A DNA stretch of 64,000 nucleotides from assembly GCF_004010195.1 (NCBI RefSeq), contig NC_057738.1:35074233-35138232 (forward strand), written 5' to 3'. Position numbers and translations under genes: made by a program. Position 1 is the stretch's first letter; the number at the start of each line of letters is the position of its first letter. This document shows, piece after piece, positions 5,651 through 54,370 of this stretch. Below the pieces are notes generated by a model that searched no databases, was not told where the DNA came from, and saw only the letters and a program-made list of their open reading frames with translations. Origin of the DNA: Chiloscyllium plagiosum. Its lineage: Eukaryota.

Positions 5651-6423
5651 NNNNNNNNNNNNNNNNNNNNNNNNNNNNNNNNNNNNNNNNNNNNNNNNNN
5701 NNNNNNNNNNNNNNNNNNNNNNNNNNNNNNNNNNNNNNNNNNNNNNNNNNNNNNNNNNNNNNNNNNNNNNNNNNNNNNNNNACGTTGCTTCCTGTAGAAC
5801 AGTAAGGGACTGGGGGTGGCAGGGAGAGCCTTTTGCGTTGCGAGGATGTGGTGATGATGGCCGTTTCTGAACTTGTCGACAGATTGCAGTCTAAATGTCT
5901 GAACGGCCTGGTTGATGAATGGCAGGAAGGAATTGGATCCTGAGAGTGACGGGGGAAACCTTTTTCTTTTCTTCGATCTCCTGGACTTGCTGCCTCAGTG
6001 ATTAGATTGTTCCATTGTGTTCAGTGCTAGTTTTTGACATATTCTATGTGCGCGTGTGTAAGGCCAATATGAATTCTTATTCCGGTTAAGAGTAACGCTC
6101 TGAAAGGTTTATCAAAACCTCCTTTCTCACTCTGACAGTGGATTTTTCCATTTTCGTCAACTCGATACAAACTTTGGCACTTATTGCAGTTGCAGGAATC
6201 CCACAGCACACTGGTGTTTCCAAAATCATTCATGTTGCCAATATAACTCTCACCGTTCGATAGATAATTTTCCATAAAACACCGTTCCGTTGTACACAAA
6301 CATTTTCTTTTTTTTGTAGTTAACACATTAGCAATCAAGTCTTATTGTATTTTTGTTTTGCAAACCTGAGGTCATTGGGGACGTACATAATCTGATGTAA
6401 ATTGGTGTATACCTGCTTTCTTT

Positions 6424-6598
6424 GTTAAAAATCACGCAGCACCAGGTTATAGTCCAACAGATTTATTTGGAGGCACGAGCTTTTGGAGCACTGCTCTGAA
6501 AGCTGGTGCTTCTAAACAAACCTTTTGGACTATAACCTGGTGTTGTGTGATTTTTAACTTTGTCCACCCCAGTCCAACACTGGCTGCTCCACAACATA
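6424..6598 (+). mobile_element. Family B fold-back PLE-related element (centre deleted)
   Basis: Inverted arms gttaaaaatcac..accaggttatagtccaa / ttggactataacctggtgttgtgtgatttttaac; tail ccccagtccaacac; flanking ctttcttt at 6416-6423 and 6599-6606. Confidence 0.8.
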
Positions 6599-6734
6599 CT
6601 TTCTTTATATGTTTTGTAACTTCTTAGTAAGGTGATATCTATGTGTGTGCAAATGGCTTTCTTTAGGTGCTCAAAGTCTTTTGTAATTTCCTGACAGCCC
6701 AATAAATATTTTTAGGATTAAATTAGGTACGCAG

Positions 6735-10125: not shown

Positions 10126-10230
10126 TTTGGTGTAGGGTGTTTTTCAGGCACATAGCTACCAAATGTGGAGCAATGAAATTTGGGGGTGCAGAAGAGCCTA
10201 GAATTGGGTTGATTTGTCTCAGTTAATGGG

Positions 10231-11581
10231 TACCTTACTCTGAACAACTTTTCTTTCCAATCCTCCCACTTCCTCCAAACCAAAGAAGTAGCCATGGGCA
10301 CCCGCATGGGCCCCAGCTATGCCTGCCTCTTCGTAGGATATGTGGAACAGTCCACCTTCCGCAGCTACACTGGCACCACCACCCACCTTTTCCTCCACTA
10401 CATCGATGACTGTATTGGCGCTGCCTCGTGCTCCCACGAGGAGGTTGAACAGTTCATCCACTTTACNNNNNNNNNNNNNNNNNNNNNNNNNNNNNNNNNN
10501 NNNNNNNNNNNNNNNNNNNNNNNNNNNNNNNNNNNNNNNNNNNNNNNNNNNNNNNNNNNNNNNNNNNNNNNNNNNNNNNNNNNNNNNNNNNNNNNNNNNN
10601 NNNNNNNNNNNNNNNNNNNNNNNNNNNNNNNNNNNNNNNNNNNNNNNNNNNNNNNNNNNNNNNNNNNNNNNNNNNNNNNNNNNNNNNNNNNNNNNNNNNN
10701 NNNNNNNNNNNNNNNNNNNNNNNNNNNNNNNNNNNNNNNNNNNNNNNNNNNNNNNNNNNNNNNNNNNNNNNNNNNNNNNNNNNNNNNNNNNNNNNNNNNN
10801 NNNNNNNNNNNNNNNNNNNNNNNNNNNNNNNNNNNNNNNNNNNNNNNNNNNNNNNNNNNNNNNNNNNNNNNNNNNNNNNNNNNNNNNNNNNNNNNNNNNN
10901 NNNNNNNNNNNNNNNNNNNNNNNNNNNNNNNNNNNNNNNNNNNNNNNNNNNNNNNNNNNNNNNNNNNNNNNNNNNNNNNNNNNNNNNNNNNNNNNNNNNN
11001 NNNNNNNNNNNNNNNNNNNNNNNNNNNNNNNNNNNNNNNNNNNNNNNNNNNNNNNNNNNNNNNNNNNNNNNNNNNNNNNNNNNNNNNNNNNNNNNNNNNN
11101 NNNNNNNNNNNNNNNNNNNNNNNNNNNNNNNNNNNNNNNNNNNNNNNNNNNNNNNNNNNNNNNNNNNNNNNNNNNNNNNNNNNNNNNNNNNNNNNNNNNN
11201 NNNNNNNNNNNNNNNNNNNNNNNNNNNNNNNNNNNNNNNNNNNNNNNNNNNNNNNNNNNNNNNNNNNNNNNNNNNNNNNNNNNNNNNNNNNNNNNNNNNN
11301 NNNNNNNNNNNNNNNNNNNNNNNNNAACCTGCAATCCTCTCCCTGACCTCCCCGCCCCCACCCCCACTCCGGCCTATCACCCTCACCTTGACCTCCTTCC
11401 ACCTATCACATTTTCAACGCCCCTCCCCCAAGTCCCTCCTCCCTACCTTTTATCTTAGCCTGCTGGGCACACTTTCCTCATTCCTGAAGAAGGGCTCATT
11501 CCTGAAACGTTGATTCTCCTGCTCCTGGGTTGCTGCCTGACCTGCTGCGCTTTTCCAGCAACACATTTTCAGCTACCTTAC
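10231..11581 (+). mobile_element. 5'-truncated Penelope-like element (RT fragment, gap, 3' terminal repeat with hammerhead-like motif)
   Basis: LTLNNFSF..HFLQTKEVAMGTRMGPSYACLFVGYVEQ...LFLHYIDDCIG is a PLE-type RT. After the gap the sequence ends in CTGAAGAagggc..GAAACGTT (11484-11511) and the family A terminus. taccttac occurs at 10231-10238 and 11574-11581. Continuity across the gap is inferred. Confidence 0.85.
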
Positions 11582-19367: not shown

Positions 19368-19890
19368 TTAAGATGGTGTCAATCTTATTAGTAACATCCA
19401 GTGGCTTGTAGCCGGAGCCCAGTTAGATATTTGCTTTCTTTGCCACATTGAACCTGGCAAGAGACAAAGCCAGAAATTGCTGGAAAAGCTCAGCAGGTCT
19501 GGCAGCATCTGTGGGGAGAAATCAAGAGTTAACATTTTGGGTCGAGTGACCCTTCCTCAGAAACCTGATAAGAGTGTTGACTTTAGCTACATATAATTTC
19601 TTGAGAGCCTGCTGTTTGTTGGCCTTGATGTCAACAATGAAAACCAAAGTATTCTTGTCCTGAGTTTTCTTCACAGCGGACACAGTACTCAGAGGGAAAT
19701 TAATGATAGCACAACAGTCCAATTGTTCCTACTGGGAGCTCTGTCTCTGGGATACTCGGGTTTCCGGCTTGGCCTGAGTGTCCTGAGGTAGGTGTCATCC
19801 TAATTTTCTTCTGCCTGTGAACTCCCTTCAAAATGGCCACCTTGGCTTTCGAGGCCTTATCTCCTGCGTTGGGTTTTATTGGTGCGCAGC
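19368..19890 (-). pseudogene. RPL23A: Processed (intronless) ribosomal protein L23a pseudogene
   Basis: Collinear fragments KASKAKVAILKGVHRQKKIRMTPT / PSIP / [52 protein letters not shown] / FNVAKKANI*LGSGYKPLDVTNKIDTI match RPL23A; frameshifts, one stop, no introns. Confidence 0.92.
19457..19561 (-). mobile_element. Family C element inserted in the RPL23A pseudogene
   Basis: TSD aacctg at 19451-19456 and 19562-19567; minus strand CTGAGGA-aGGGTC-actc-GACCC-AAAATGTT (GAAA mutated). Confidence 0.85.
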
Positions 19891-27367: not shown

Positions 27368-27460
27368 TCCCCTGAAGAAGAGTTACATCTGAAACGTTGA
27401 CTTCTCCACCTCCTGATGCTGCCTGGCTTGCTGTGTTCTTCCAGCCTCCTGCCTATCTAC
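27368..27460 (+). mobile_element. Family A/C-related variant with hammerhead-like core
   Basis: CTGAAGAagagttacatctGAAACGTT (27372-27398) then gatgctgcctggcttgctgtgttcttccagcc; relatives at 36730-36812 (-) and 47170-47232. Confidence 0.7.
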
Positions 27461-27502
27461 ACTATTAAACGTTTGGCAGAAAGAGCTCAGACAGTGGTCT
27501 TT

Positions 27503-27702
27503 CAGAAGTCACGTGACAGCAGGTTATAATCCAAAGGTTTATTTGAAAATCACACAGAGCGCAGATGTGCTTCTGTGAGCACCTGACGAAGGAGCAGCGC
27601 TCCGAAAGCTCGTGTGATTTCAAATTAACTTGTTGGACAATAACCTGTTGTCATGTGACTTCTGACTTTGTCCACCCCAGTCCAACACCGGCACCTCCAC
27701 AT
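27503..27702 (+). mobile_element. Family B fold-back element with intact hammerhead core
   Basis: cac-CTGACGA-aGGAGC-agc-GCTCC-GAAAGCTC-gtg at 27580-27614; arms cagaagtcac..acagcaggttat / ataacctgttgtcatgtgacttctg. Confidence 0.85.
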
Positions 27703-28014
27703 TGTAGTCTTGCCCCACTGAGCTTGACGGTAGCTGCCCCAAGCTTTGGTGTGTGTCTCAGCGAGTAGTCCTGGACCTTGGGATGTGCCAGTCTGCAATA
27801 CTCCGCCAAGGTCAACTCCTCGCAGTTAACATTTTGAGTCCAATATGACTCTTCCTCATAAGAAATGTTTGGAGAGAAATGAGCCAGGAGCAGGCAGGTG
27901 GGACTAGTTTAGTTTGGGATTATGTCAACATGGACTGGTTGGACCGAAGGGTCTGTTTCCGTGCTGTATGACACTATGATTCTATAAAGAAGTCTTGGTG
28001 CACTTGTACAGGGT

Positions 28015-31832: not shown

Positions 31833-32783
31833 ACCTCCCGAGTAATATCTTTTAAAAGCGTTTTCGCTCTGGCACCTTGTAAGATCTACTCTGACTATGT
31901 CGTGTGGTGTGTTGTTGTGAACAGTCCCTACACAGATGTGTTTGCGACAGATTTGTTGATCTTCCCCACTGACCTGATCATAGTTTGAATCGCTGCATAA
32001 TGCTGGTGGGCATTTCAGGGGACTGACAAAGGACAGGCACTGAGGAGGTTGTCAAGGTAACCCCTAGCTCCTCACCTAGCAGAATTCCCATTTATCCAAG
32101 TGCACTTCTGGAAAATCCTGGCTTTGGCAATGGGGCCTTACCTCAGTGCCTGAGGTTAGGTCGGAGTAAGGCGTAGGAACAGTAGTAGGTCACCCAACCC
32201 CTCTGACCTGTTCGGGGAGATCATTGCCAATCCCATCGAGGCTTTGAATTTGCTTTTGTGCTGCCCCTCTCTAACTGTTGATGCCCTGTCCATGTGAACA
32301 TAGGAAATCAGAGGCAGACTGTAATCATTCAGGCAGACCAACTGGAAAGGAGCATTGTTCATTATTGAACGATAAAGTAGAGCCACTACATGTGGTGTAC
32401 ATCCCAGACCAGGACAGACAGTTCTGTAGACCCATCCTTGGGCCCTCAAAGCTGCTTGACCTGCTGTGCTTTTCCAGCCTTACGTCTGTTGACTCTGACC
32501 TCCAGCATCTGCAGTCCTTACTGTCTTCTGCAAGGGCTCAGGTGATGAGTTCCAGCCTTTGCCTGTCACCATGGGAACTCATATGCAATGAACTCCAGAA
32601 GGAGATTAATTAGTGATTAATTAGTAGGGGGTTATCTTGCTGTCCATTAAGTACTTGAGCCGGCTCCACCATTCAATAAGATCTGATCCAATCTGTTTGT
32701 GTAATAAAATTCCACTTCCCCACTTACCTTGATTACTATTGATTCTAACAGAAGTCTACCTCCCTCCGTCTTAAAAATATTAA

Positions 32784-32984
32784 GTTAAAAAATGACACAA
32801 CACCAGATTATAGTCCAACAGATCTATTTGGAAGCACTAGCTTTTGGAGCGCTGTTCCTTCATCAGGTAGTTGATGAAGGAGCAGTGTTCCGAAAGCTAG
32901 TGCTTCCAAATACATGGACTATAACCTGATGTTGTGTGATTTTTAACTTTGTCCAACTCTAGTCCAACACCGGCATCTCCACAT
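32784..32984 (+). mobile_element. Family B fold-back element inside a minus-strand CR1 fragment (about 32650-33050)
   Basis: About 80-bp arms around ttcatcaggtagttgatgaa; hammerhead-like cores on both strands with single changes; flanks ttaaaaatattaag / ttaaaaaattaag. Confidence 0.87.
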
Positions 32985-33439
32985 TATTAAAAAATTAAGC
33001 AGTCCTGTCTGCGCACTGCCTTTTGAGGCAGAGAGTTACATAGGCACAAACCCCCCCCCCAGGACAGGACCTTGGTGTGGGCTGACATCCCTTCCACATT
33101 AAATCTCTCTTGCCCTCCCCCAGATCAGAAAGTAAATAGATTTTGGGGGGAGGGGGAAGAGGGAGAAAAGATGTGGAAGAACTAAAGGAAACCTTGGTGG
33201 AAGGCAGGAGAGATTAAATAACTAAAGATTTCATGGTACAAAATGCAAAGGGAATGGTAAAAGACAAAAGATAAGGCCAGGTGAGGTGTGAATGCTGGAT
33301 GGCAGCTCTCCGACTACAGCATGAAGAGCTAAGAAAAAAACCATCTTGATTCTTGTGCTGTGAATGGTGTTGGTCAGTCCACATTTATTATCAATTCGGA
33401 GTGGCACGGAGGGTAGTGCTCGATTTCCTTCAACCTGGG

Positions 33440-38584: not shown

Positions 38585-38865
38585 CTGAGAGTTAACATTT
38601 GGAACGTGGTATGACTCTCCTTTGGAACTGCTGCAGGAATCAGCTCCAAAGGACAGTCCTATGAAAAGTCATCTAGACTCGAAACGTTAGCTTGCTCTCC
38701 CTCCATGGATGCTGCCTGACTTGCTGTGACCTCCAGCAGTTTTTGTTTTCCAGACTAGACTTAAAATGTTCACTCTGTTTCTGCCTCTGCGGATGCTGCC
38801 AGACGTGCTGAGTATCTCCAGCACTTCGTGTTTCGTTTTTAGATGACAACATTTGCAGTATTTTG
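38585..38865. mobile_element. Cluster of family C fragments
   Basis: aGTC-atcta-GACTC-GAAACGTT-agct at about 38667-38692; two gatgctgcc(t/a)gac..gctg..ctccagca..ttttg termini. Confidence 0.7.
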
Positions 38866-39964
38866 CGTCTGTTTGTACAGGTTACTTCAGTAGAATTGCA
38901 TCCCGCTTCCATACTGGGGCTTTTGTTGCTGCATTTGATTGTTGTGTGTAATGTAGTCTGTTTCTGGGGAAGTTACTGAATTCTGTAAACATTTTGCAAT
39001 CTGTTTTCACTTTACGAACGAGGTTGTAGTACAACTTCTTTAGTTCCCACACTCTGTCTGCGTTAGACCTATCAGCATCCTTCGAGAATGGCTAGAGATG
39101 GGGAAAGGATAAGAATCAACTATCTAATTGATAGCAGAACCTCGACCAGAGACTGTCCGTCTAAACTCACCTGAGAACACTATCTTTAACTTCCTGTGCT
39201 TGGCCACTCTCATCTCATTTTCACCCAAGATCATGTTGATTTTTAAGTCATTTGAGGCGCTGTGCTGGCTTATAATTTAAAGAAAATTCTTATAATTTAA
39301 AGAAAATTCTTATACTTCCTCTCTCTTGCCCCATTTCTCTCTCACGCCTATCTCTCTTGCCCCTTCTCTCTCTCACGTCCGTCTCTCTCTTTCTCTAGTG
39401 CAGATGTGAGTAGCTAGGCCAATGTTCACTGCCCATTCCTAATTGCCCTCCTGAAGGTTGTAGTGAGCTTCAGTTTTGAACCATACAGGCCATGTGTTAG
39501 GAAGGGAGATTGTTACTTGCTCACTGTAGATAATGCAGTGGGCTAGGTCTGGACTATCCTGGAGTCTGGAGTACAGAGTTGTCAGCTGGTGAATTTTCTG
39601 TTGTGCATCAATAATGGTCTCACAAAGCCTCGGCCTGCTTTGTTCTCTGTCATTTTTCCCGGATCTCTGGCATCCTTGGGGAGGTTGTTTGATCAGACTT
39701 CAGTCTAAAGGAGGGTCAATTAGTTCACGTTTCAGAGTTTAGGATGTAGTTAAAGGTTTTGATATCTGGACCTTTTTCAAGCTCCCTCAGGATACTTTAC
39801 TGAGAGAAAGCCATCCTGCTGTGATAATTTCTCTCAGAAGAGAGAGGGAGATCTTTCGTTTTGCTAAAGTCAGAAGTCACACGAAATGGAAGTGTAACTA
39901 GTGTAGTGGATGTTTAATTTATTCATTAAACCCTGGATGTAGGTGCCTGCACGTTCATGGGTGA

Positions 39965-40485
39965 CCTCTGTTTTGGTCACTCTGTTATAGAAAAGATATT
40001 ATGAAGTTGAAGAGGGTTCAGAAAGATTTACCAGGTTGTTGCTGGGACTTGAGTTATCAAAGTAGGCTGGGACTCTTTTCACTGGAGTGTAGGAGGGTGA
40101 GGGGTAACCTTTATAGAGGCTTATAAACTTATGAGGCGCATGGATAAGATGAGTGAGAACAGTCTATTCCCCAGAGTGGTGGAGTCCAAAACTTGGGGGG
40201 ATATGTTTAAGGTGAGAGGAGAAAGATTTAAAAAGAACCATGAGGGGCAACGTTTTCACACAGAGAGTGGGTTCATAGGTGGAACGAACTGCCAGAGGAA
40301 GTGGTGGATGTAGGTACAGTTACAGCATTTAAAAGACATCTGGATGGGTATTTAATAGGAAAGATTTAGAGGGATATGGGCCAAGTGCTGGCAAATGGGG
40401 CTAGATTGGGTTGGGATATCTGGTCGGCATGGACGAGTTGGACTGAAGGGTCTGTTTCTGTGCTGTTCACCTCTATGACTCTGTG
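39965..40485 (+). mobile_element. HER1/CR1 LINE 3' fragment
   Basis: KDIMKLKRVQ..., MDKM..NSLFPRVVESKT.G; tail ctctatgactctgtga. Confidence 0.9.
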
Positions 40486-40605
40486 ACACCTGACGAAGGA
40501 GCAGTGCTCCGAAAACTTCTGAATTCCAATAGACCTGTGGGACGATAACCTGGTGTCATGTGACTTCTGACTTTCTCCACCCCAGTCCAACACCGGCACC
40601 TCCAC
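40486..40605 (+). mobile_element. Family B single arm with hammerhead-like core
   Basis: cac-CTGACGA-aGGAGC-agt-GCTCC-GAAA at 40487-40514; tail ccccagtccaacaccggcacctccaca. Confidence 0.82.
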
Positions 40606-42474
40606 AAAATTTCTTTTTGCTGCCAGCTTCTTGTAGGTTTGCTCCTTCAACTGACGCACGTAGGTGTGGACTCAAACAGCAACTCTAGCTCAGAGGCTGT
40701 TGCTAGGCAGCCTTGAGTACAGGCCTCTCAAATCATTCTGAATTATAAGCCATGAAAGCCATTTCTGATCCCTCGTTTAAAAAAAAACCTTTGGTTTACA
40801 TTCTGTCAACAGAGTCAGTTGACTTTTGTTTTGGAAAAAGTAGGTGAACCAAAGCACACTTCAAATCTTGGCTCCTTTTTAAACTGTCTACAACCCAGAA
40901 ATTGTCCAAATTCTTCCATCTCTTCCAGAGTCCCCTCCGCTGTTATTTTTTTCGGGACTGTATATTCCCAGCACGCACTATAGTGCAGCACTGAGGGAGT
41001 GTACTTCCTTCCTCCAACCCGACCCCACCTGAGGTTCTGGCCCATCTGGTTGTCTTTAGTGGGAGCTTGCTGTGCACCAGGTTTCCTGAATAAAACTGCA
41101 TTTGAAAAGTTGTAGTGAGTGATTATCCCAGCAGCTCAGCGTTGAGTTAACATGATGAAGGGACCCTCAGGATCTCTTTCCACTAATTTGGCTCTTCACT
41201 GGATTCTCCCCTCGATCTGTTTCCTTACTAGGCTGATCTGGAGGGAGATGCTGTGGTGTTTGGGGTGGGGATGGGAAGAGGACTTGACTGGAGTTGGGTA
41301 AGACTTTGGGATGGGTCATGACGGCGGGGGGGCGCGGTGCACGGTGGAGTGGATAAAGTAGCATCCTTGCTGCCTGTTGATTGTGTCATGGCACTGGGTC
41401 TGCCTGTGGTCCTTGAATGGTCCTCACAGCGAGTTTCCAATGGGCACTTTGATTTGAAATTCCTCTCCCTCCTATCTTGGAGCTGAGGCACTGACCTATC
41501 CTCTGTGTGATCACGAGCCCCCGTGAGCCTACGAGTTCAGCAATATCCGGAACATTATCCCCTCTCCCGCTCCCCAGTTTGAGTCCTGGCTCTCGTTGGT
41601 TTAAGCATTATGGTGGCCGTGTTTGTATCTAACACAATCTTGCTCTGAAATTCTCTTCCTCGCTGATATCTGAAATGGGTCAGAGATTCAGCATCTGCAG
41701 GGGGTCACGTTTGTCCCTGTAGAGTGTGGCTCCTCAAGGTGTGAACGAGACAGGATGGCAGCTCCCTTAAACAGAGCGAGTCAGTTCCCTCCCCTTCCTG
41801 TCAGGGCAAGATGCTTATAAAGAGAGGGGCAGGAGAGCAAGGCGCCGTTCAGCCTGGGGTGCAGGGTTTCTGTTTGAAATCTTGCAGCATTTGTTGAGGA
41901 CGGCTTTTGAAAGGATGCCGTGATTGGGCAGAGCGCACTTTTCTGAGCAGAGACCTGACCGAGAGTTCAGTGACCTCTAAAGCGAGGGCAGAGAGGGTGT
42001 TGTTGTAACAGACGGTCAGGGACACTGTATTCTGGGCATGTAGATGTATGTGTGTGCAGGTCATCTGGCACAGAAACAGGCCATCCAGCCCGACCTGGTC
42101 TTGTGCTCCCCTTGATCATTCCTCATTGAAATATGCCATCGTAGCCCTTCATTGCCTTCCCTCTGTCACGTGTTTATCCAGCCTTCCCTTAACAGCACCG
42201 ATACCAGAATAGTGTGTCCCACATTGTCTTCAGCAACAAGCAAGAGCCAGAGAGCCTCACTGTGTTCCACCGGGAAGGGGGTTTGGTGATGCTTTGGGAT
42301 CCCTGTTCTTCTGTGAGCCAACAGACTTCTCCAATATCGGCTAGCGCTTGTCCCTCTCCTCAGAGGTCACAGGTCACCTCGAGAACCAAATCAATGTTGA
42401 CCCCTCCAGTGCATTACTGAGGGATTGCTCACTGTCAGAAAGACCATCTGCTGGGTCTCTGACACGTTGCTTGA

Positions 42475-46212: not shown

Positions 46213-46519
46213 TAATCACCATAAATGTTTCCATTTACCTTAGCTCTCAACTACATTAGTTGTAACTTGATGTATAGTGTATGACAGAAACTGGCCATTC
46301 AACCCAAACAGATTGTTCTAGCCCTTATTTTCTGTGTAAGTTCCACTTGTCTTTCTTTGTCTGATCCAATTGTACGAGAGAACACATTATTACAATCTTG
46401 AGTGAGTCCCGATAGCTTAAGATGGGAATCCAGAAAGGATCTACACTGGGGAGATGAGGAATCACTTAATCCTCTTTATGAATTAACTTGTTAGACCGTC
46501 TGGAAGTTGGATGATGTTT

Positions 46520-47094: not shown

Positions 47095-47660
47095 CACGTC
47101 GAGAATGAGGTTAACAAAGCAGACAGTATCCTCAGCTGTATAAACCAGGGCTTAAAGTTGGCTTAGAGACCTGAGGAAGGGTTAGACCCGAATGCTGCCT
47201 GGCCTGCTGTGTTCTTCCAACCTCCTGCCTGTATGGAGCAGGGAGGTTTAGTTGAAGTTATATTAGCCAGTAGTTGAGTCTGAGCTGGAGTATTGTGTGC
47301 AGTTCTTGGAGTTGAACTGTAGGGAGGATGTGTTGGAATTGGAGCAAGGGCAGAACAGATTCCTGAGAATGATTTCAGGGATGAGTTTTGTAAATGGATT
47401 GAACAGGATGGAAGTGTTTGACTTAGTGAGGAGAAGACTGAGAGGGGATCAGATTGAGGTGTTCAACATCACAAGCAGGATCTCGACAGACAGAGAGAGA
47501 GAGAGAGGAACTGTTCCCACTCATAAGCTGATGCAGGACCAGCTTTGAAATAATTCGTAAAAGAAGCAAAAACCACTGGATGAAAAAGCCTTTTCTGCAA
47601 AGTGAGTTTTTAAAGGTGTGGTGGAGACCAGTTCAACTGAACCTATCAAAAGAGGATTAA
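47095..47660 (+). mobile_element. Degenerate HER1/CR1 fragment with nested hammerhead-family piece (47170-47232)
   Basis: ELEYCVQF..NCREDVLELE..Q.RF.RMISG...RRLRGDQIEVFNI. Confidence 0.75.
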
Positions 47661-48291
47661 GTGATTCCTCATCTCCCCAGTGTAGATCCTTTCTGGATTC
47701 CCATCTTAAGCTATCGGGACTCACTCAAGATTGTAATAATGTGTTCTCTCGTAATCTAAGAAAGGAAAACTGCATAGAGAAGGTGGGAGGTTGGCGCTGA
47801 GTGAGGAGGGTTAGCACAGACACAATGAGCGAAATGGCCTCCTGGGTGGGGCGAGGGGTTGTCAGGGTTCTGAGAGGAATGGAATGGGTGAGGATGGAGG
47901 GAGTGCTTTTTGGGTGTGGCTTTGTGTGTGATTGATGGGGATGAAATAGGGGTAGTTTGGCAAATGAGTTCTGTTGCAATAAAGACATGAATTGTCACTT
48001 GAATGTTTTATGGGCCTCTGCTGGCAGAGGTGTAAGTGGCTTGAAACATAATCAGTTCTTAACCAGAGAGCCATCAGTTCAGTTTTGGAGAAGCAGTTCC
48101 CTCTTTATCAGTTGATACCATCTGTTGTCAGTGACTGACTGTGTTAACAGCCCATGTTCTAAACATAACCTCCTCCAGCTGTGCCTCTGCCATGGTGGCT
48201 CTCTCAGACTGGAGCCCTCTTGGGCTGAAAGGAGTCCCTGAGTAAGTCCATTCCACAAATCCCACCTTGTCAAATGTGCAGGACTGAGCCC

Positions 48292-48322: not shown

Positions 48323-48670
48323 CTCTGCATTCTGGGGGTGCTGGAATGTGCTGATGTTCCAACAGTCAAAGGGGTTTTTCAGCAGCTTGGCTTGTTTGTG
48401 GTGACGTAGAGTTGAGAGGGGGAAGAGGTTGGTTGGTCGGTCTAACCCACCATCTCCTGCTCCATTGCCACCACCTGCTTTCTATAGTTAGCGACTCCCC
48501 AGTGAGATTGAGGTCAGGCCTAGTATGTGTGAACCCCCTCCCACCCAACTCCTTTTCAGGCTCACCTCCTCACAGCCACTATCTGTGTTCGTACAGCAAA
48601 GCTGAGCCCATTGGAGTGAGAGTAGGCCATTCAGCCCATTGAATGTGCTCCGCTGTTCACTGAGATTATG

Positions 48671-48938
48671 ATGTGGAGGAGCTGGTGTTGGGATAGCGTG
48701 GACAAAGTTTAAAATCACACAACACAGTACTTCCAAATAAACTTGTTGGACTATAACCTGGTGTTATGTGAATTTTAATTTAACACAACGCTGGATTATA
48801 GCCAACAGGTTTATTTGGGAGTACTAGCTTTCAGAGTGCTGCTCCTTTATCAGGTAACTAGTGGGGTAGGATCATAAGACACAGAATTTATAGCAAAAGA
48901 TCACAGTGTCATGTAATTAAAACGATAAATTGAACTAG
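48671..48938. mobile_element. Composite family B element inside a minus-strand CR1 fragment (about 48615-49045)
   Basis: Alternating arm orientations; TSD ctgagat(t/c)atg at 48660-48670 and 48939-48949; degenerate minus-strand core near 48825-48853. Confidence 0.8.
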
Positions 48939-49307
48939 CTGAGATCATGGCGGAAGTGAAAATTCTCAACTCCCACTTTCCTGCCTTTTCCCCCATAATC
49001 CTCTATTCCCTTATGGATTAAAAATCTGCCCATCTCCGTTTTGAACACTGCCCAGAAACACACACGACAACAACTTGTATTTACGTAGCACCTTTAGCTT
49101 TGTCAAGATTTCACTGGAATGTTATGAAGCGAACTAAAGTCGATAACAGCAACCCCTATTTGTATGACCCCTGCGACACTTCGCAGGAGCATTGTAAATC
49201 AGATCATGTCACCAAGCCACACATTATGTAAGGTGCCCACCTGCTTGATCCGAGAACTGGGTTTTAAGGGGTGTCTTAAAGGAGGAAAGCAAGGTGAGGA
49301 GGTTGTT

Positions 49308-51237: not shown

Positions 51238-51440
51238 AAAGCAAAGTACTGGGGATCTGAAATAAAAACACAGTGCTTGGGAAACCCCACGACTCTGGTA
51301 ATATGCTGGTGTAAAGGTTTCGAGTCAATACGGCTCTTCAGAAACGAAGAAGAATCATTGTGGACTCTATGCTAATTCTGTTGCCGTTACGGTTGCTGCC
51401 AGACCCCACTGAGTTTCTCTAGCACCTTCCGTTTTCGGAA
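51238..51440. mobile_element. Old family C fold-back element
   Basis: gtttcgagtc..gctcttcag / gaagaagaatc..gactc centre with decayed arms. Confidence 0.5.
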
Positions 51441-53757: not shown

Positions 53758-54370
53758 GAACATAGAACAGTGCAGGCCCTTTGGCCCTCGATGTTGTGCC
53801 GGCCTTTTATCTTACTCTAAGATCAAACTAACTACATACTCTTCATTTTACTAGCATCCTTGTACTATCTAAGAGTCACTTAAATGTCCCCAATGTATCT
53901 GACTCTCCTACCGCTGCTGGCAGTGAATCCCATGCACCCGCCACTCCCTGTCTAAAGAACTGACCTCTGACTTCTCCCCGAAACCTACCTCCAATCACCT
54001 TAAAATTTAAGCCCCCCTCGTGATAGCCATTTCCACACTGGGAAAAAATCTCTGACTATTCACTCTATTTATGCCTCTCATGATGTGGAGGAACTGGTGT
54101 TGGATGGGGTGGGCAAAGATAAAAATCACAGAACACCAGGTAATAGTCCAACCGCCAATAGATGTCAACCACCCGATGAAGGAGCAGCGCTCCGAAAGCT
54201 AGTGCTTCCAAATAAAACAGTTGGACTATAACCTGGTGTTGTGTGATTTTTAACTTTATGCCTCTCGTTATCTTGTACACCTCTGTCAAGTCGCCTCTCA
54301 CCCTTCTTCACTCCAACGGGAAAAGCCTTAGTTCCCTCAGCCTTTCTTCCTAAGCCATGCCGTCCAGTCC
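53758..54370 (-). mobile_element. HER1/CR1 3' fragment interrupted by a family B element
   Basis: RGDLTEVYKITRGI continues across the insertion. Confidence 0.87.
54080..54254. mobile_element. Family B fold-back element
   Basis: Perfect 12-bp TSD tttatgcctctc at 54068-54079 and 54255-54266; core CCGATGA-aGGAGC-agc-GCTCC-GAAAGCTA near 54173-54201. Confidence 0.88.

Follow-up and report, generated by a model that had tools for sequence, protein, structure and literature searches.

Family B of the carpet shark Chiloscyllium plagiosum most probably represents the 3′ ends, in the form of pseudo-LTR pieces, of a Penelope-like element (PLE) that is endonuclease-positive (EN+) and probably of the Neptune type, a reading based on sequence to which we assign a probability of roughly 0.87. 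Its copies in the window (the whole 64,000-nucleotide stretch of contig NC_057738.1 analysed here) match published PLE insertions in layout, its hammerhead agrees with those of metazoan PLEs, and a closely similar hammerhead was found downstream of a putative GIY-YIG frame on a marine contig. Elements of this class, the ribozyme variant and the argument from covariation have all been published before, and family B, which may already bear a name in Repbase or Dfam, adds a shark family to the list. Only the poly(A) site located behind the hammerhead may be new.

Layout of family B copies

BLAST of the six copies against the whole window recovered all six of the loci originally predicted (6424-6600, 27502-27703, 32779-32987, 40480-40610, 48667-48964 and 54080-54262), a density of six loci per 62,268 non-N bases, and gave no match to family A outside the core, also as predicted. 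They fall into two subtypes, B2 (27503 and 40486) and B1 (the other four). In addition, a 19-nt match to the B2 arm end was obtained at 39866-39884 on the minus strand (E 0.02), which is either a seventh, short remnant or a chance match. Inverted arms that are 72-84% alike in self-BLAST are present at five of the six loci, which are thus hairpins as claimed for all copies, whereas 40486 is a solo copy (40487-40606, plus strand), 5′-truncated so that it begins at helix I, with the tail present. The inverted-repeat body of the 27503 copy (27502-27665; self-BLAST 74% over 173 nt) has an RNA fold of −90.1 kcal/mol (z −9.3), and its left arm lacks the hammerhead core. Among the B1 copies, the hairpin at 6424-6597 is folded at loop II (arms 6424-6558, tail from 6559), that at 32782-32985 contains two mutated half-sites (tail from 32948), and the copy at 54080-54257 consists of the tail and a short arm on the minus strand, with the hammerhead (54170-54204) and AAUAAA (54211) on the plus strand. 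The longest B1 copy (48671-48938, minus strand) is built of three segments, namely the tail with a short arm, an opposite arm, and an arm with the hammerhead and about 85 nt of upstream repeat. This insertion combines head-to-head and tail-to-tail junctions, with a fold near 48775; head-to-head is the usual form of inverted PLE junctions (PMC3846280). Fold points lie in loop II at 6424, just 5′ of C3 at 32784 and within about 20 nt of C3 at 54080, while at 27503 the fold point is a 25-nt palindrome ending 5 nt before C3. Truncation within about 25 nt of the hammerhead core was found at five of the six loci.

A tail of about 36 nt is present on one end only at all six loci, in agreement with the original prediction; it spans 27667-27702 (plus strand) in the 27503 copy and is carried by the short inverted arm in 48671 and 54080. 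A few extra bases follow the tail at 54080-54088 and 48668-48678 (minus strand), and in 54080 this extension reaches an ATG, the G of which also belongs to the target duplication, a weak hint that the frame of the parent may start directly behind the tail. The predicted perfect 12-mer flanking the 54080 copy is exact (12/12; 54068-54079 and 54255-54266), up to three T of which may be the element's own end, and the 6424 copy has an exact 8-nt duplication (at 6416 and 6599). Exact duplications of at least 8 nt are restricted to these two loci. Imperfect duplications flank 32784 (13 matches and one gap; 32771-32784 and 32987-32999) and 48671 (10/11; 48660-48670 and 48939-48949), a possible left duplication of 27503 is weak (27494-27501, plus strand; 7/8 against 27704-27711), and none was found at the flanks of 40486. 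Duplications of about 8-14 nt are thus present at four loci, weak at one and missing at one. Among 2,000 random flank pairs, leaving aside 36 in N runs, matches of at least 8 nt occurred in 27 and of at least 12 nt in two.

PLE insertions are described as 5′-truncated and frequently accompanied by a truncated copy in inverted orientation directly beside them; a tail of 30-40 bp marks only one of the ends, and the target duplications vary in length (Craig et al., PMC8557442). Arkhipova et al. describe duplications of 8-10 bp, a 31-bp tail and palindromes at inverted junctions (PMC3846280). The tail corresponds to the stretch between two internal start sites of the reverse transcriptase (RT) (Frangieh et al., PMC11167929). 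As far as can be judged from its copies, family B fits this insertion anatomy on every anatomical point.

The hammerhead motif and its state in each copy

The 27503 copy contains a complete predicted minimal type I hammerhead at 27580-27614 on the plus strand (C3 at 27583; predicted cut between 27611 and 27612), with a 5-bp stem II, AGCU, and a helix I of three base pairs plus one G-U pair. A strict descriptor (CUGANGA, stem II of at least 4 bp, GAAA, Watson-Crick 15.2-16.2, UH, helix I of at least 3 bp) matches only this site in the window, and none in 300 dinucleotide shuffles. The core agrees with the published consensus of metazoan PLE minimal hammerheads, and the original reading of the motif as a PLE-type minimal type I hammerhead in PLE-derived copies is borne out at this level. 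The attribution of the motif to all six copies has to be narrowed, as it is exact at 27580-27614 and complete in only this one of six CUGANGA-like half-sites. Both helix III and helix I are broken in the 40490 half-site, the 54173 half-site carries U4C, the two of the 32784 hairpin carry G12A (32838-32866, minus strand) and C3U (32871-32899, plus strand), and the one at 48853 (minus strand) carries G8A. CUGANGA was not found at locus 6424. AGCU, the palindromic 15.1-16.1 tetranucleotide that takes the place of helix III, is present in five of the six half-sites. An Rfam scan of the window yielded no hammerhead and two miRNA-model matches below the gathering score on family A hairpins; the Rfam models appear not to include motifs lacking helix III.

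In the full 27503 hairpin the pairing probability of helix I is 0.000, rising to 0.18-0.20 once the left arm is removed, and that of stem II is 0.93-0.98 in folds with and without the left arm. With half-sites on opposite strands and helix I unpaired in the full hairpin, the genomic hairpins are, by these models, poor ribozyme candidates. A co-fold of two 45-nt cores gave a stem-II-swapped dimer and not an AGCU helix, a result that carries no weight either way. C11.1-G12 of the family A and B hammerheads forms a CpG (27602-27604, 32850, 6489, 48832-48833), and the expected decay (G12A or C11.1U) is seen in several copies; such decay would disable the core soon after insertion.

Covariation and constraint

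The different stems of families A and B around identical catalytic positions had been put forward as natural covariation. Pairing is indeed kept in three different helices, with a compensatory swap of C15.2-G16.2 against G15.2-C16.2 and further differences in stem II and helix I (motif-anchored rows), but the argument is thin, since it counts few events between only two families that were picked for their common core. Furthermore, Cervera and de la Pena (2014, PMC4209133) had already argued from covariation, using 56 motifs of 40 species, and the G-C (AGCU) form occurs in 5 of the 56 rows of their Fig. S3, counted by eye.

A comparison of the 35-nt hammerhead between families is the better test. 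Subtypes B1 and B2 and the family of the marine contig L002 (see below) differ at 4 of 35 positions, with private mutations of single copies set aside, and all four lie in loop II, N7 or H17, for which the chance is about 1-3 in 10,000. As the flanks of the three hammerheads are not alignable, this confinement indicates that constraint acts in the parent lineages. The genomic hairpins themselves are without constraint on the hammerhead, with five of six half-sites mutated. The loose ends of 405 contigs of DNA run X1 at 48726 give an intact core as their consensus, and G8, mutated in the 48671 copy, is restored in most of the depth and present in 485 of 537 RNA reads. The majority of family B is intact at this position.

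A poly(A) site behind the hammerhead

Four of 24 listed public runs were aligned to 48620-49000 of the window at 80% likeness. The one RNA run, X21, is single-cell poly(A) RNA with the same species label, of which about 2 in 100 was read, yielding 1,997 aligned reads including 735 first mates. A poly(T) loose end at 48802 was found in 561 of the 1,997 reads (agreement 0.84, median length 73), and the in-register point at which family B reads pass into poly(A) is located at 48795-48802 on the minus strand. We take these poly(T) ends to be first mates that run via barcode and oligo-dT into the RNA 3′ end. The predicted cut falls between 48825 and 48824, and an AAUAAA signal (48810-48815, minus strand) begins 9 nt behind it; the poly(A) end follows the signal by 13-15 nt, about 28-30 nt past the predicted cleavage site, and a GU-rich stretch is located downstream. 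Judged by this one RNA run, a poly(A) site in use is thus situated within the family B repeat, behind the ribozyme and before the ends of the element.

Alternatively, the poly(T) ends could stem from oligo-dT priming on a few genomic copies with an A-run at this site, which would affect the poly(A) claim only and which we consider unlikely. A single consensus per place would hide a minority of A-tailed copies in the DNA runs, and the evidence comes from one RNA run in which a few loci may dominate, as the RNA alleles differ from the DNA alleles (T at 48924 in 222 of 396 RNA reads, compared with 877 of 6,134 for the summed depth of X1); these loci are possibly host transcripts. Against such priming, the genomic text at the site contains only two A, the repeat continues in the ordinary way at 48802 in both DNA runs (and in contig run X15), and a canonical AAUAAA and a GU-rich stretch are found at the appropriate sides.

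RNA of the hammerhead-sense strand dominates X21 (depth 683 against 69), and reads span the predicted cut uncut, with depths of 714 and 711 on either side. Many of these reads derive from decayed copies, given that C11.1 is kept in only 323 of 711. No pile of molecule ends was listed anywhere in 48620-49000 for X21, which says nothing against cleavage, because a product of 28-30 nt would probably go missing or be too short to align.

Of ten family B arms checked, five retain an intact AAUAAA, among them the left but not the right arm of 27503. The signal lies 18 nt after the predicted cut in L002, and further away in two of nine family A sites. Among the 56 published PLE hammerhead rows, nine have AAUAAA behind the motif by eye (PMC4209133), where about two would be expected, assuming A 0.40 and U 0.35 and bearing in mind that the rows are not independent. 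In L002 (1331-1410), AAUAAA is followed by short words that resemble the family B poly(A) surroundings by eye and are not significant by BLAST. In the literature searched, which leaves most subscription papers outside, the hammerhead-then-poly(A) layout was not found for PLEs.

Relatives and the parent element

Exact-motif scans returned no match in viral or metagenome contigs, and a relaxed motif matched two metagenome contigs (L001 and L002) and nothing in viral contigs or prokaryote genomes. The L002 hammerhead is identical to window 54170-54204 at 32 of 35 positions and lies about 750 nt downstream of, and on the same strand as, a C-terminal frame of 177 aa, which has a C-x4-C-x2-C linker as well as VIY/YIG, R, H, E and GLN motifs. 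This frame has no Pfam match at E 0.05, and is 44-47% identical to two proteins, one with RVT_1 above the cut-off and one with weak matches to both RVT_1 and GIY-YIG; judged by its motifs and relatives it is probably of the GIY-YIG type. A CX2-5CxxC linker as in L002 is a feature of the Neptune clade, and Nematis also has a linker before GIY-YIG (PMC8557442). L002 thereby places this type of hammerhead in an EN+ PLE with a Neptune/Nematis linker. L001 has the repeat of L002 on one strand and an RT fragment (RVT_1, E 1.5e-5) on the other, which is the usual inverted arrangement of PLEs. The two contigs, each with a complete hammerhead core, represent one family, whose BLAST match to family B covers only the 35-38-nt hammerhead, as would be expected of a family related to B and not of the shark parent itself.

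Protein searches from the L002 frame found three relatives (2 + 1), none named as shark, and neither contig nor protein searches linked family B to an RT or GIY-YIG frame in any shark sequence. Likewise, no family B reading frame was found in the window, the open stretch behind the tail is only 20 aa long, and a motif search with family B-derived peptides in 258 proteins gave a single, chance-looking match. The window does contain an 84-aa PLE RT fragment (10213-10464, plus strand; Pfam RVT_1, E 0.01, below cut-off), among whose best named relatives are sequences of Chiloscyllium punctatum (87%), Rhincodon (86%) and Stegostoma (77%). As this fragment is located upstream of an N gap (10467-11325) followed by a family A hammerhead on the same strand (11484-11511), it likely belongs to the parent of family A, not of B, and is cut by the assembly gap. 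A 158-aa protein with 92% identity to this RT sequence is listed under Proteus mirabilis, on a contig of 474 bp, and probably reflects host contamination of a bacterial assembly.

A non-autonomous master unit derived from a PLE, in which the hairpin or repeat itself replicates and is moved in trans, would account for the very high density of family B and for the missing reading frame in the window, and non-autonomous PLE derivatives have been described (PMC8557442; bioRxiv 10.64898/2026.07.22.740005). We nevertheless regard it as improbable, because no two hairpins share a fold point and 40486 is solo, which argues for independent truncations and not for one hairpin master, and because reads and contigs extend upstream past the longest window copy with consistent sequence (at 48934 and 48935, with 239 and 155 reads). 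A miniature inverted-repeat element (MITE) of a DNA transposon carrying hammerhead-like text by accident, suggested by short inverted repeats, target duplications and high copy number, is barely credible and largely ruled out by duplications that vary from about 8 to 14 nt, where the original prediction had named fixed-length duplications and terminal inverted repeats as the mark of such an element, and it is further opposed by ends made asymmetric through the tail, the solo copy, the lack of the motif in shuffled sequences and its recurrence behind a GIY-YIG frame. The 3′ ends of an EN+ PLE remain our preferred reading of family B. The window loci were also compared with non-LTR retrozymes; head-to-tail tandem units were not encountered.

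Further hammerhead-like cores with other stem II sequences are located at 27370-27398 and 38657-38688 on the plus strand and at 51314-51341, 27828-27860 and 19531-19560 on the minus strand, so that the window seems to hold remnants of several PLE families beyond A and B. In addition, two arms of 105 nt each (46373-46477 and 47649-47753) are 100% complementary and 1,171 nt apart, with no long reading frame found between them; they represent an inverted duplication of very recent date, a small transposon or an artefact of assembly.

Proposed mechanism and reach

For the preferred PLE origin, we propose that the GIY-YIG nuclease of the parent, presumably of the Neptune clade in the shark, nicks the target, as known from the literature, and that RT initiates within the element RNA at either of two positions separated by 36 nt; again following the literature, this choice would make the tail optional. 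RT would usually abort within about 25 nt of the hammerhead, possibly by stalling there, and a second, inverted and truncated copy would be laid beside the first, often via a small local palindrome. Repair would then create target duplications of variable length, and the inserted copies would decay neutrally. The hammerhead would be constrained in parent lineages only and be at most a conditional ribozyme there, assisted by dimer formation or by protein, the latter as taken from the literature. RNA polyadenylated at this site stops short of the two element ends, which lie further 3′, and so cannot serve as their template. A transcript that reads through from a tandem copy may fill this role instead, which would agree with the pLTR-ORF junction template (PMC11167929). 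Cleavage, if it occurs, would cut the poly(A) signal off the RNA upstream of it, as a review describes for Clec2 (PMC6765202).

We tentatively hypothesize that the PLE repeat is an ordered RNA-fate cassette of cut site, AAUAAA with a used poly(A) site, and two RT starts, perhaps widespread, an idea that we consider possible and still rather doubtful. If true, polyadenylated RNA would be mRNA, unable to template the ends, and read-through RNA alone could do so, while hammerhead cleavage would remove the mRNA poly(A) tail or free the downstream copy. Furthermore, dispersed shark copies numbering about 100,000, an order of magnitude derived from window density and summed depth, where contig depth is not copy number, would supply host transcripts with poly(A) sites, some with a latent ribozyme. 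A poly(A) site 28-30 nt behind the cut gives the PLE hammerhead, whose role is called unclear (PMC8557442), a concrete possible role in deciding between mRNA tail and template RNA, and family B suggests that sharks have a large reservoir of poly(A) sites derived from repeats.

Comparison with known systems

Like family B, the minimal PLE hammerheads described in PMC4209133 have a CUGANGA core, an extra base between 9 and 10.1, G10.1-C11.1, a palindromic 15.2-16.2 and a short helix I, and a turtle motif of the G-C (AGCU) form is also followed by AAUAAA. The 56 rows of that paper include, by eye, no cartilaginous fish and no family B stem II; the 3′ flank is labelled only as AU-rich and the main text is silent on polyadenylation. 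These hammerheads showed no monomer and low dimer cleavage (PMC4209133).

Complex insertions of EN+ PLEs share inverted arms, a one-end tail and variable duplications with family B (PMC8557442, PMC3846280), as well as palindromes at the inverted junction (PMC3846280). In contrast to these insertions, both family B copies of a pair are shorter than about 200 nt, with only the repeat left. The Poseidon element PAc of Anolis has, like family B, a tail between two end points downstream of the hammerhead (PMC11167929). Cleavage of the Anolis hammerhead requires the element's own protein, and its cut site is not a point at which RNA-seq reads stop (PMC11167929), so that PAc (Fig. S2B as described) and family B are alike in lacking a pile-up there. 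The PAc reading frame starts inside the hammerhead (PMC11167929), whereas in family B the plus-strand frames after the core stop before the tail end, and the poly(A) site is located there.

Non-LTR retrozymes (bioRxiv 10.64898/2026.07.22.740005), for which one chondrichthyan was sampled for tandem units, are, as family B, non-coding, PLE-related and hammerhead-bearing vertebrate repeats. They form head-to-tail tandem units, whereas the family B copies in the window are dispersed, inverted or solo. The Clec2 3′-UTR hammerhead of rodents (PMC6765202) resembles family B in that the cut site is located between the frame end and the poly(A) signal. The Clec2 motif is one discontinuous ribozyme of the host, and its activity has been demonstrated, whereas family B is a multicopy retroelement end with a predicted ribozyme.
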